Virus genome (UHGV): UHGV-0117634
Origin: a virus
Direction: 5' to 3' (one strand)
DNA length: 64,000 bases
Part shown: one piece after another, positions 43,388 through 45,123 of the stretch
Position numbering within the stretch: position 1 is the first letter of the stretch
How the letters are laid out: every line of letters begins with the position of its first letter
Position numbers and translations under genes: made by a program
Notes under the pieces: model-generated
Seen by the model: the letters and a program-made list of their open reading frames with translations, nothing else
What the model was told of the DNA's origin: nothing
The model's database searches: none

Positions 43388-43459
43388 TTGGTACTCCATA
43401 TCGGATTCGAACCGATACATAACACAGATTTTAAGTCTGGCCTCTCTGCCAATTGGAGT
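43388..43459 (-). tRNA. tRNA-like gene, atypical (short D region; anticodon loop CTTAAAA, anticodon TAA)
   Basis: 7-bp acceptor TACTCCA/TGGAGTA, T-arm with TTCGAAT, but truncated D-arm and no long variable arm. Confidence 0.45.
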
Positions 43460-43468
43460 AATGGAGCA

Positions 43469-43544
43469 TTGGCGGGGGATGTTGGAATTGAACCAACTTC
43501 TTCGATTTCAAAGACCGAGGTTTTAACCTTGTAAACTAATCCCC
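43469..43544 (-). tRNA. tRNA-Gln (anticodon TTG)
   Basis: Anticodon arm TCGGT-CTTTGAA-ATCGA, T-arm GTTGG-TTCAATT-CCAAC, CCA; A1-C72 mismatch. Confidence 0.7.
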
Positions 43545-43771
43545 TAACTAACTCTTGTAAGAATATATGCGTTATTGCATGTATCTTTATTTTCTGGCAA
43601 CATTGTTTCAAAGATAACTTGCTTTAATTCCAAACCAGCAAAGTTGTAGACAATCTTTCTAACTTCTAATGGGTCAGCTTTCCAGCCAACTCTGATAAAG
43701 AAAGTATCTCCAAATCTCCCTGTTTCAAGCTTGTCATCTTCTGGGTGTTTTTCAACTATGAGTTTAAACAT
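43544..43771 (-). CDS. hypothetical small protein within tRNA cluster
   Basis: 75 aa; AAGGG SD-like sequence upstream; stop abuts tRNA-Gln. Confidence 0.35.
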   Translation of the reverse strand: MFKLIVEKHPEDDKLETGRFGDTFFIRVGWKADPLEVRKIVYNFAGLELKQVIFETMLPENKDTCNNAYILTRVS

Positions 43772-43790
43772 AAGTTACCCTTTTAAATTT

Positions 43791-43867
43791 GGTGCAGAAT
43801 AAGGGATTCGAACCCCTAACTAACAACTTCGTAGGTTGCTGCTCTGTCCATTTGAACTAATTCTGCA
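43791..43867 (-). tRNA. tRNA-Arg (anticodon ACG)
   Basis: Acceptor GCAGAAT/ATTCTGC, anticodon arm GCAAC-CTACGAA-GTTGT, T-arm AGGGG-TTCGAAT-CCCTT, CCA. Confidence 0.75.
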
Positions 43868-44044
43868 ATATCCTTTTGAGATTCCTGTCTAGCTCTCTTC
43901 TTATCTCTTCTGAGAAAGCGTTTACGATGGTCTGTACGCCATTTGTAATAATCTTCTTCACCATCATGTGCTGCACAGCAGCCACAACTTGCAATTTCAA
44001 CTTTACCATGTCTACCATAAGGCTTCATAGGAATCTCCTAAAAT

Positions 44045-44122
44045 TGGTGTTCCAAGACGGATTCGAACCGTCACTAATACAAGGTTTGAGCTTGCATCCT
44101 CTACCAATTGGGATACTGGAAC
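44045..44122 (-). tRNA. tRNA, isotype uncertain (anticodon CAA, class I-like length)
   Basis: Acceptor GTTCCAG/TTGGAAC, T-arm GACGG-TTCGAAT-CCGTC, anticodon loop CTCAAAC, CCA; 78 nt. Confidence 0.5.
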
Positions 44123-44123
44123 T

Positions 44124-44198
44124 TGGTACTCGCTGAAGGACTTGAACCTTCTTCACCAACTTGTAAGGATGGGGCTTTACCGTATAAACTAAGCGAGC
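44124..44198 (-). tRNA. tRNA-Val (anticodon TAC)
   Basis: Anticodon loop CTTACAA, T-arm GAAGG-TTCAAGT-CCTTC, CCA. Confidence 0.6.
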
Positions 44199-44294
44199 TT
44201 TAAAAGAGGTCTGAAGTTGTGCCGCTAACTCAACTCCGTGGAATTTGTTACGGTCTTCAGTTGACTCAAGCGGTCTTTCACTTGACCTCAAAAT

Positions 44295-44371
44295 TGGTGC
44301 TGCTCACAGGAGTTGAACCTGCATCTCCATCCTTACAAGGGATGTGTAATAGCCAATTATACGAAAGCAGC
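44295..44371 (-). tRNA. tRNA-Thr (anticodon TGT)
   Basis: Anticodon arm CATCC-CTTGTAA-GGATG, T-loop TTCAACT, CCA. Confidence 0.7.
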
Positions 44372-44372
44372 A

Positions 44373-44786
44373 TTAAATTTTTATGATACCTGCATGTACT
44401 TTTCTGTGGCAATTGGCACACAAAACAATACACTTCCTAATTTCAGCTTTTAGCCTTTTTGTGGAATAAGAATAAAGTGACGCTGGGTTTGAGTCTTTCT
44501 CATAAGGGTCAGTGTGATGTAAATCCAATGCAACTGGTTCTTTTTCACCACATATCTTGCACTTACACCAAGCCTTATATCTTCTAGTCAAGTTTCTATT
44601 GTAATCTCGCTTATCTTCACGAGCATTTTTAATAGCCTCTTTCCTTTTCTTATTACCTTGATAACTCTTTGCATCACGGAGTCTTGCACACTCTTTACAT
44701 TGTGTTTGAAGACCATCTTTTTTACTCTTATTCTTATGGAATAAGCTTTCATCTTTTGGTATTCTGCAAGTACTACATATTTTCAT
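44373..44786 (-). CDS. HNH homing endonuclease
   Basis: C-terminal CKICG...LDLHH...N...LCANCHRKVH HNH/zinc motif; N-terminal Cys4 zinc ribbon; inside tRNA cluster. Confidence 0.85.
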   Translation of the reverse strand: MKICSTCRIPKDESLFHKNKSKKDGLQTQCKECARLRDAKSYQGNKKRKEAIKNAREDKRDYNRNLTRRYKAWCKCKICGEKEPVALDLHHTDPYEKDSNPASLYSYSTKRLKAEIRKCIVLCANCHRKVHAGIIKI

Positions 44787-44800
44787 ATCACACCTTAATT

Positions 44801-44875
44801 TGGAGCATCCAGAGGGAATCGAACCCTCAACCTCAGTTTGGAAGACTGTAATTTTCCCGTTTAAACTATGGATGC
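44801..44875 (-). tRNA. tRNA-Gly (anticodon TCC)
   Basis: Acceptor GCATCCA/TGGATGC, anticodon loop CTTCCAA, T-arm GAGGG-TTCGATT-CCCTC, CCA. Confidence 0.7.
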
Positions 44876-44881
44876 ACTAAT

Positions 44882-44957
44882 TGGTGGAGAAGCAGGGAAT
44901 TGAACCCTGTACTTAAGTTTGCAAAACTTATGTTTTAACCATGTAAACTACATCCCC
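44882..44957 (-). tRNA. tRNA-Ala (anticodon TGC)
   Basis: Anticodon arm TAAGT-TTTGCAA-ACTTA, T-arm CAGGG-TTCAATT-CCCTG, CCA. Confidence 0.7.
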
Positions 44958-44963
44958 GATATT

Positions 44964-45039
44964 TGGTACAGGTGGAGGGAATTGAACCCATCGTCTTACT
45001 GATTAAGAGTCAGCCGCATAACCATTTTGCTACACCTGC
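44964..45039 (-). tRNA. tRNA-Lys (anticodon CTT), noncanonical T-stem
   Basis: Anticodon arm GCTGA-CTCTTAA-TCAGT; T-arm GGG-TTCAATT-CCC with flanking mismatches; CCA. Confidence 0.55.
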
Positions 45040-45046
45040 ATTAATT

Positions 45047-45123
45047 TGGTACACCTAGAGAGAGTCGAACTCACACTGAACAGATTCTAAGTCTGCTGCC
45101 TCTTCCAATTGGGCTATAGGTGC
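45047..45123 (-). tRNA. tRNA, isotype uncertain (anticodon TAG, class I-like length)
   Basis: Acceptor GCACCTA/TAGGTGT, anticodon arm AGCAGA-CTTAGAA-TCTGTT, T-loop TTCGACT, CCA; no long variable arm. Confidence 0.5.

Follow-up and report, generated by a model that had tools for sequence, protein, structure and literature searches.

Bacterial leucine transfer RNAs (tRNAs) are treated in textbooks and recent reviews as type II tRNAs. The 64,000-nucleotide (nt) stretch of virus genome UHGV-0117634, referred to here at its full length as the window, raises a question in this regard, for its tRNA gene cluster includes three genes that combine leucine anticodons with very short variable loops. Are these genes leucine tRNAs, and could they serve as such in a bacterial host? 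Genes were called over the whole window with ARAGORN and with the Rfam tRNA covariance model (gathering score, 29), and E. coli K-12 leuZ (UAA), leuX (CAA) and leuW (UAG) were used as alignment references. The three genes are as follows.

43389..43467, minus strand: tRNA-Leu(UAA), called by ARAGORN and by Rfam (47.5 bits); 79 nt including CCA (76 nt plus the encoded CCA); aligned with E. coli leuZ, it has a 7-nt variable loop GUUAUGU, G1-U72, A73 and the anticodon loop CUUAAAA.
44045..44122, minus strand: tRNA-Leu(CAA), called by ARAGORN and by Rfam (46.5 bits); 78 nt including CCA (75 nt plus CCA); aligned with E. coli leuX, it has a 6-nt variable loop AUUAGU, G1-C72, A73 and the anticodon loop CUCAAAC.
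45047..45123, minus strand: tRNA-Leu(UAG), called by ARAGORN and by Rfam (54.1 bits); 77 nt including CCA (74 nt plus CCA); it has a 5-nt variable loop UCAGU, G1-U72, A73, A37 and a U50-U64 mismatch in the T stem.

The Rfam matches span the full length of the model, with E-values of 5e-7 to 8e-9 for the whole window, and each gene contains a complete colinear cloverleaf with a 7-nt anticodon loop, U33, A73 and CCA. According to the Rfam alignments, the variable loops of 7, 6 and 5 nt are unpaired and have no stem. The genes thus show the combination that characterizes a type I tRNA-Leu, namely a Leu anticodon (UAA, CAA or UAG) with a short unpaired loop of around 5 nt, and lack the variable arm of more than 10 nt with a stem that defines class II, or type II. 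The three genes are Leu tRNAs, yet they are not type II tRNAs.

A first-pass annotation, made by hand folding from the letters of the window, had assigned the anticodons TAA, CAA and TAG to these genes and had noted that a long variable arm was missing from each of them; ARAGORN and Rfam return the same anticodons, ARAGORN calling all three as tRNA-Leu, and the measured loop lengths bear out the second point. The annotation had also reported no class II tRNA-Leu in the cluster. When all 64 kb were searched with a relaxed regular expression (a D loop of Leu type, an NAR anticodon and a T loop, 15-40 nt spacing), no tRNA-Leu of any arm length was detected beyond these three, thereby ruling out an overlooked long-arm tRNA-Leu in the window. 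The coordinates had been exact for two of the genes, but the first, placed at 43388-43459, ended 8 nt short at its 5′ end. The truncated D region attributed to one gene did not hold up: it appeared because the 5′ boundary of the first gene had been set 8 nt too far in, and the D arm is normal for a tRNA-Leu once the boundary is corrected. Finally, three interpretations had been offered, namely atypical Leu tRNAs, misfolding and tRNA-like RNAs with another role. The first is supported by the data below, misfolding is excluded save for the one 5′ boundary, and no positive evidence emerged for the third.

Apart from the variable arm, the three genes closely resemble their host counterparts. In the alignment with leuZ, leuX and leuW, the sole gross difference was a gap of 8-10 nt at the variable arm, and G1, U8, A14, A15, G18, G19, the T loop and A73-CCA were unchanged. 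The D loop AAUUGGNAGA, of the form AAUUGG(C/U/A)AGA, has the length and sequence of the E. coli loops with position 20 alone differing. The D stem consists of three pairs and leaves C13 and A22 unpaired in all three genes, as in a class II-type D arm, U48 lies immediately 5′ of the T stem, and the T loops read UUCGAAU or UUCGACU. The identity set of E. coli leucyl-tRNA synthetase (LeuRS) comprises A73, the A15-U48 Levitt pair, G18G19, A20a and the D/T tertiary pairs, whereas the anticodon and the long arm are not required and arm-deleted variants stay active (review PMC9976931). Every one of these identity positions is retained in the window genes, including the complete set of elbow determinants (U8-A14, the Levitt pair A15-U48, G18G19, an A after position 20, and U54, U55, C56 and A58 of the T loop), and the alanine mark G3-U70 is absent from all three. 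The same elements recur beyond this phage. The discriminator A73, present in 3/3 window genes, was found together with U8 and U48 in all of 109 distinct armless viral Leu tRNAs, as in 109/109 bacterial long-arm ones. Moreover, tRNAscan isotype models place Leu first for all three homologues of phage Sf14, with scores of 67.4, 49.1 and 60.2 (PMC12482277).

About 255 phage records, almost all from Felixounavirus and its relatives, share 90-98% identity with the cluster region, the closest being Shigella phage SFPB (97.6%), with Felix O1 at 90.6%; the window is a Felixounavirus, a virulent phage of the Felix O1 type. Comparison with the tRNA sets of related phages, which the first-pass annotation had proposed as a check, agrees with the calls, as Felix O1 carries three annotated tRNA-Leu at the corresponding places. 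The genes themselves were therefore already known, and it is their architecture that has gone unremarked in the literature searched: the Felix O1 genome paper lists the tRNA-Leu with Cove scores of 46-58 and is silent on the length of the arm (PMC3185647), the variable arm is nowhere mentioned in a 2025 study of phage Sf14 tRNAs (PMC12482277), and a full-text literature search found no paper on a phage type I tRNA-Leu. In 216/264 phage records the UAA gene shows an identity of at least 99%, and in most it is 100% identical, which reflects purifying selection. The UAG gene of the window had no match among 5,426 complete E. coli genomes.

Base pairing is conserved across many phages. In the 109 armless viral sequences, 93-100% of the pairs in the D, anticodon and T stems are canonical, with 3-6 pair types per position, as compared with 41-67% when the partners were shuffled. 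The three-pair D stem is retained in this set (positions 10-25, 11-24 and 12-23 are paired in 98-100%, and 13-22 in just 4.6%), and 90 of the 109 have a 5-nt variable loop. Thirteen tRNA-Leu genes of cultured phages that infect enterobacteria, Erwinia, Aeromonas, Bacillus, Lactobacillus and Streptomyces gave a similar picture when aligned, with 96% of cells paired versus 68% after shuffling and with changes on both sides in 18 of 20 pairs. Stem covariation of this strength indicates that these are selected tRNAs. A pseudogene or a chance tRNA-like sequence was considered as well and rejected, given that the stems are intact save for a single U-U mismatch in the UAG gene's T stem, that the genes are near-invariant in about 260 relatives and that 18/20 pairs carry compensatory changes. 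In nine of the 13 aligned genes, the D arm, the T arm and a variable loop of YCAGU type hardly vary, and the acceptor and anticodon stems show free covariation. The other four (Felix O1, FG1m, Aeromonas AhP_Mru1 and phiEa104) depart from this scaffold in at least one of these features; the UAG allele that Felix O1 and FG1m carry at the same position of the genome is a different one, and the anticodon of the phiEa104 gene is CAA.

Separately from this alignment, positions 5999-6076 of Salmonella phage FG1m, called as tRNA-Leu(CAA), were found to be a chimera that joins the 5′ two-thirds of the CAA gene to the 3′ end of the UAA gene. Pairing of its two acceptor strands is thereby lost, and the intervening Arg, Gln(UUG) and Leu(UAA) genes are missing. 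Recombination between the two similar Leu genes appears to have deleted what lay between them, unless the chimera is an artefact of assembly.

One acceptor pair stands out. G1-U72 is found in the UAA and UAG genes of the window and in 13/13 members of the UAG-family alignment, while the other acceptor pairs covary freely, and its frequency is 43% in viral armless, 32% in viral long-arm and 5% in bacterial long-arm Leu tRNAs. To judge from these frequencies, G1-U72 looks specifically selected in phage tRNA-Leu; it is also carried by E. coli tRNA-Leu(UAA).

We consider it probable, at roughly 75%, that the three genes encode functional Leu tRNAs of this Felix O1-like phage, which arose from type II tRNA-Leu with a long arm when the variable stem-loop was lost, are charged by the host LeuRS and decode UUR and CUN codons. 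The estimate is not higher because we infer, from the identity positions, that an enterobacterial LeuRS charges tRNAs of the Felix O1 type. Transcription would be carried out by the host RNA polymerase as part of the phage tRNA cluster, for which the following features are relevant.

42189..47673, minus strand: tRNA gene cluster, with 25 ARAGORN calls and a tRNA-Tyr, interrupted by an HNH endonuclease open reading frame (ORF) and small ORFs.
46137..46165, minus strand: sigma-70 promoter-like site, TTGACA, 17 nt, TATAGT (11/12 matches), upstream of the sub-cluster with the three Leu genes.
47730-47701, minus strand: second near-consensus sigma-70 promoter-like site, preceding the whole cluster.

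The total of promoter-like sites in the region was not above that of shuffled sequences, and the quality of the match at 46137..46165 alone was notable; this site would be a candidate for driving the three Leu genes. Excision would involve RNase P and host 3′ trimming. With CCA encoded in the genes and 1-7 nt separating each Leu gene from the adjoining tRNAs, the mature ends are expected to arise from RNase P cuts with minimal trimming. The host LeuRS, having no strict need for a long arm, would then leucylate the products through A73 and the D/T elbow (U8-A14, A15-U48, G18G19 and the A after position 20) and not through the anticodon. No aminoacyl-tRNA synthetase gene was noticed among the window ORFs examined, although no search aimed at one was made.

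On the ribosome, the UAA tRNA is predicted to read UUA and UUG, the CAA tRNA UUG, and the UAG tRNA CUA and CUG, possibly all CUN codons; the UAA, CAA and UAG set can in this way cover all six Leu codons. Codon usage fits these assignments. In 57 ORFs of the window, the Leu codons are distributed as TTA 25%, TTG 16%, CTT 29%, CTC 5%, CTA 10% and CTG 15%. The Leu codons of E. coli are about 50% CTG and about 4% CTA. The AT-rich phage thus uses the UUR and CUN codons of these tRNAs far more than its CUG-biased host does, and Leu[TTA] was listed in the Felix O1 paper among the codons aided by phage tRNA (PMC3185647).

As for the origin of the architecture, an ordinary long-arm tRNA-Leu would have lost its variable stem-loop and been left with a loop of 5-7 nt. 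The default reading of this loss is that the phage dropped a part that bacterial LeuRS does not require. The long-arm tRNAs of other identities in the same cluster are the following.

42271..42363, minus strand: tRNA-Ser(GCU), 93 nt, long variable arm kept; called by ARAGORN and by Rfam (46 bits).
45372..45461, minus strand: tRNA-Ser(UGA), 90 nt, long variable arm kept; called by ARAGORN and by Rfam (31.1 bits).
About 47032..47112, minus strand: tRNA-Tyr(GUA), long variable arm; a weak call (Rfam 22.8 bits, below the gathering score) that ARAGORN does not make.

Class II tRNAs for Ser and Tyr had been noted in the first-pass annotation, and two long-arm tRNA-Ser and one weakly called long-arm tRNA-Tyr were indeed recovered; the counterpart of the latter is given as 'Pseudo (Tyr)' in Table 1 of the Felix O1 paper (PMC3185647). 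Seryl-tRNA synthetase (SerRS) depends on the size of the arm (PMC9976931), and the arm has been reported as a recognition determinant of tyrosyl-tRNA synthetase (TyrRS) (PMC12360207). The Ser and Tyr tRNAs would keep their arms because these two enzymes use them.

How widespread is the armless form? In BLAST searches, the Leu genes of the window aligned with annotated tRNA-Leu of unrelated phages without a gap at the arm. The UAG gene alone matched 322 records, including phages of Mycobacterium (101), Streptomyces (53), Erwinia (27) and Enterococcus (11). The armless form was seen in isolates of at least six lineages, for example in the following phages.

Aeromonas phage AhP_Mru1 (Demerecviridae): tRNA-Leu of 77, 77 and 77 nt; Ser of 85 and 90 nt.
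Lactobacillus phage LpeD (Herelleviridae): tRNA-Leu of 74-77 nt; Ser of 90 and 90 nt.
Mycobacterium phage Cali (Bixzunavirus): tRNA-Leu of 76, 75 and 74 nt; Ser of 85 nt.
Streptomyces phage Jay2Jay (Stanwilliamsviridae): tRNA-Leu of 76 and 75 nt; no long-arm comparators listed.
Bacillus phage P59 (Herelleviridae): tRNA-Leu of 77 and 77 nt; Ser of 93 nt and Tyr of 87 nt.
Cronobacter phage CR8 (Vequintavirinae): tRNA-Leu of 74 and 75 nt (record annotation) and of 77 and 78 nt (ARAGORN); Tyr of 85 nt; Ser of 92 and 84 nt (record annotation).

Viral sequences of IMG/VR were then scanned with the pattern AATTGGNANA, 10 nt, TNAR, a gap and GTTCGANTC. With the gap set to the armless length, at least 120 viral matches were obtained, and 119 loci were run through ARAGORN, with lengths counted without CCA. 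Among the tRNA-Leu listed in these loci, 174 were of 79 nt or less and 50 were longer, whereas 101/102 tRNA-Ser had at least 81 nt and 40/40 tRNA-Tyr at least 79 nt. With a length-agnostic gap of 15-35 nt, the matches in the first 80 viral loci listed were bimodal, 39 being armless and 53 long-armed (39/92 armless). The identical pattern, applied to one bacterial genome per species, gave 6 armless and 115 long-arm matches (6/121 armless) in 120 loci from many phyla. The odds ratio was 14 among the matches listed (Fisher p = 2e-11), a figure that, like the others of this census, comes from one D-loop/T-loop pattern with redundant sequences kept and gives an order of magnitude only. These counts suggest that armless tRNA-Leu is a common form in phages and a rare one in bacteria, at roughly 40% versus about 5% of pattern-matched Leu tRNAs. 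The viral loci ranged from 29 to 64% GC and had a median of 10 tRNA genes per fetched stretch. What appears new is the scale of armless tRNA-Leu among phages, coliphages included.

The six bacterial cases represent five loci, three of which, among the matches listed, belong to Actinobacteria (Gordonia, Herbiconiux and an Actinomycetales metagenome-assembled genome). A prophage location was considered for them and set aside, as the flanking ORFs match a histidine kinase, subtilases, glutamate synthase or nothing, with no phage signal, and from these neighbours the genes look chromosomal. In two unrelated loci, on the Herbiconiux chromosome and in a Planctomycetota metagenome-assembled genome, the armless tRNA-Leu adjoins a subtilase (Peptidase_S8) gene, an adjacency that may be coincidental; the latter locus has three consecutive armless Leu genes followed by a tRNA-Tyr. 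In sequence comparisons over 67 core positions, which are too short to tell one origin from several, the nearest neighbour of an armless sequence was armless too in 76%. This pattern fits few origins of armless tRNA-Leu followed by horizontal spread.

Several points weigh against translation-active, host-charged tRNAs. Minimum-free-energy folding gave z = -1.6, -2.1 and +0.1 for the three genes, and the best fold of the UAA gene is not a cloverleaf; because of this weak support, covariance models and comparative covariation were relied on instead. The window tRNA-Leu(UAG), as well as many phage CUN readers, has A37 in place of G37, so that the m1G37 (1-methylguanosine) site of TrmD is missing, which could affect reading-frame maintenance. 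Among pattern-matched CUN-reading Leu tRNAs, G37 was found in 78/79 bacterial, 32/43 viral long-arm and 23/56 viral armless sequences. The C-terminal domain of E. coli LeuRS touches the backbone of the arm in crystal structures (PMC12360207), and charging efficiency may therefore be lower without it. In addition, E. coli LeuRS has been described as charging type II tRNA-Leu only, and it reportedly left the Streptomyces coelicolor type I tRNA-Leu(CAA) entirely uncharged (Fan et al. 2019, NAR, PMC6614811).

This Streptomyces tRNA deserves a closer comparison, since it is the only natural bacterial type I tRNA-Leu that has been described; almost all tRNA-Leu of bacteria are stated to be type II (PMC6614811). 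Like the phage tRNAs, it is natural and non-mitochondrial, it has a 5-nt loop (ACAGC, close to UCAGU, CCAGU and ACAGU of the phage family), and it exists alongside type II tRNA-Leu and a single LeuRS of bacterial type; three of the five bacterial armless loci listed in our scan are likewise actinobacterial. It differs in being chromosomal and in carrying C48, whereas U48 is kept in every phage sequence. Its own LeuRS charges both types of tRNA-Leu through a specialized leucine-specific domain and does not use A73 (PMC6614811). In the window phage, by contrast, all three Leu tRNAs are type I and must work in enterobacteria. With C48, the Streptomyces tRNA is missing the A15-U48 element, and the failure of E. 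coli LeuRS may therefore not transfer to the phage tRNAs; that C48 accounts for this failure is our own suggestion from the sequences and may or may not hold. The negative result of Fan et al. also conflicts with the work on arm deletion in E. coli summarized in PMC9976931. As far as that summary goes, engineered arm-less E. coli tRNA-Leu (Asahara 1993, 1998; Larkin 2002) is leucylated by LeuRS provided that A73 and the D/T tertiary structure are present. The layout of these molecules is exactly that of the phage tRNAs, although they were laboratory constructs examined in vitro.

Other known tRNA-Leu are more distant in one respect or another. The type II tRNA-Leu of E. coli (leuZ, leuX and leuW) and phage T5 share the D arm, elbow nucleotides, T loop, A73, CCA and anticodons with the window genes, but have a variable arm of 11-18 nt with a stem, and G37 in CUN readers, where the window has 5-7 unpaired nt, and A37 in its UAG tRNA; the tRNA-Leu(UAG) of T5 is an ordinary one of 85 nt. 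Animal mitochondrial tRNA-Leu have type I architecture and use A73 and A14 as identity elements (PMC9976931), but they have a dedicated mitochondrial LeuRS, their elbows are often degenerate, and they show no sequence relationship to the phage family.

The surroundings of the Leu genes contain several further elements. The ORF at 44375-44790 (minus strand), between tRNA-Gly and tRNA-Thr, encodes an HNH-type endonuclease-like protein. Not all relatives have it, and those that do annotate it as endonuclease VII or HNH endonuclease. It is typical of the mobile endonucleases of phage tRNA regions such as that of T5. A 471-amino-acid (aa) ORF lies immediately upstream of the cluster, at 47839-49254 (minus strand), and matches phrog_850 'RNA-binding protein' and the Pfam domains DUF2828 and DUF7788. 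The protein has a DVSSS (MIDAS-like) motif, and its C-terminal half weakly resembles the vWA_Ro60 domain of the Ro60 protein of Streptomyces phage Jay2Jay (25% identity over 188 aa; pairwise E = 0.008). The true Ro60 of Jay2Jay (TROVE plus vWA_Ro60) occupies the same position, upstream of the tRNA cluster of that phage. On this resemblance, the 471-aa protein may be Ro60-like; it had no match in a Protein Data Bank sequence search, and a single-sequence AlphaFold model was unusable (pLDDT, the predicted local distance difference test score, 38).

Within the cluster, a 29-nt repeat occurs four times (plus-strand coordinates 46746-46774, 46834-46862, 47315-47343 and 47478-47506), and each copy can pair with a downstream GGTCTGGT, closing a stem-enclosed module. 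The module at 46640-46785 (minus strand) encloses four hairpins, which are anticodon-like, T-arm-like (GAAGGUUCGAAUCCUUC), capped acceptor-like and D-arm-like. It scores 30.9 bits with the Rfam tRNA model and is not called by ARAGORN. Its layout resembles that of bacterial YrlA-type Y RNAs; no Y RNA match was obtained for it in Rfam, and its folding z-scores were not significant. Two tRNA-like 3′ halves, each with a T arm, the 3′ strand of an acceptor and CCA, are located at about 45698-45822 and about 45474-45560 (both minus strand). They have matching 5′ acceptor strands, with bodies that are much longer or degenerate, and ARAGORN calls neither; one gave a weak tRNA-Sec-like match of 20 bits. 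Possible counterparts of both are the 'tRNA-like stable RNAs with unknown functions' annotated in the tRNA region of T5.

Among the alternatives to a simple loss of a dispensable part, the one that survives best accepts translation-active tRNAs and makes the loss adaptive: the armless shape would escape a factor that recognizes type II tRNAs, which could be a nuclease or toxin of host defence, or else a function of the phage that disables the tRNA-Leu of the host and spares the phage set. We regard this as unlikely. The viral enrichment described above (39/92 versus 6/121 among the matches listed) would be expected from it, and so would the recurrence of the full UAA, CAA and UAG decoding set in unrelated phages. 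Phages of enterobacteria, Bacillus, Lactobacillus and Streptomyces have nearly the same tRNA-Leu(UAG) scaffold, a sign that a useful variant has spread horizontally. The anticodon loops of the phage Leu tRNAs also differ from those of the host (C32, A37, and A38 or C38), and changes of this kind have been linked to evasion of anticodon nucleases (PMC10264068). Effectors that depend on the arm have been reported, among them human SLFN11/14, which act on type II tRNAs, and MenT3, which acts on tRNA-Ser.

The closest parallels are phage tRNAs that escape defence systems, such as anticodon-loop variants (PMC10264068), T5 tRNA-Lys versus PARIS (PMC11464382) and T5 tRNA-Tyr versus retron effectors (PMC11555353). 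These are also isoacceptors that keep their identity and decoding while a structural feature is changed relative to the host, but they carry their change in the anticodon loop and face a known nuclease, whereas here the whole arm is missing and no matching nuclease is known. The characterized bacterial Schlafen cleaves Lys, Met, Ala and other tRNAs, with no specificity for type II (PMC13056530). Moreover, the Ser and Tyr tRNAs of the same phages keep their arms and would still be struck by a general factor against type II tRNAs, and many phages, including T5, carry long-arm tRNA-Leu. We know of no nuclease or toxin in enterobacteria that uses the arm to target tRNA-Leu, and none was found in the literature searched. 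In its fullest form, which we likewise hold to be improbable, this explanation makes the UAA, CAA and UAG set invisible to an arm-reading factor, with G1-U72 and the loss of G37 as parts of the same re-engineering; if true, it would represent a second structural route of tRNA-based immune evasion beside changes of the anticodon loop.

Less likely again is a non-translational role, in which the RNAs would be made but charged poorly or not at all by the host LeuRS, and would act as defence decoys, as regulators or as partners of the Ro-like protein. It is favoured by the reported inability of E. coli LeuRS to charge a natural type I tRNA-Leu (PMC6614811), together with the presence in the cluster of other elements that are tRNA-like and not tRNAs, the Ro-like protein gene upstream, and the annotated stable RNAs of the T5 tRNA region. 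Nevertheless, the E. coli Leu identity positions, the 7-nt anticodon loop with U33, the encoded CCA and A73 are all conserved, and the anticodons fit codons that the phage overuses. A decoy needs no exact Leu identity elements, yet these are kept in 109/109 diverse sequences, and the three genes, with their complete colinear cloverleaves, show none of the permutation, extension or missing parts expected of a non-translational tRNA-like RNA and contrast in this with the odd element at 46640-46785. The remaining explanation, that the genes are short-arm tRNAs of another identity whose anticodons mutated to Leu, so that another amino acid would enter at Leu codons, or else decaying pseudogenes, draws on their class I length and on the pseudo-tRNAs of phage clusters (Pseudo(Tyr) and Pseudo(His) in Felix O1; PMC3185647), but is very improbable in view of the Leu-specific D arm (three pairs, unpaired 13-22 and AAUUGGNAGA, identical in length to that of E. 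coli tRNA-Leu), the isotype models that rank Leu first for the Sf14 homologues (PMC12482277), the lack of G3-U70 (Ala) and of a long arm (Ser), the fact that most other synthetases read the anticodon, which here is Leu, and, for pseudogenes, the near-perfect stems with compensatory changes.

Functional Leu tRNAs that have lost the variable stem-loop would have consequences beyond this genome. The isotype and pseudogene flags used in phage tRNA annotation should expect short tRNA-Leu, and compact, anticodon-independent scaffolds of this kind are a possible suppressor or orthogonal tRNA chassis. The single natural exception studied, in Streptomyces, was published as a rare recognition mechanism, whereas the scans suggest that the armless form is common in phages; those that have it infect enterobacteria, Aeromonas, Bacillus, Lactobacillus, Mycobacterium and Streptomyces. 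One question that follows, given the conflicting literature, is how a LeuRS of the E. coli type handles natural type I substrates. Others are what purpose the long arm of tRNA-Leu serves if phages can drop it, and whether the arm is a target in the conflict between phages and their hosts.

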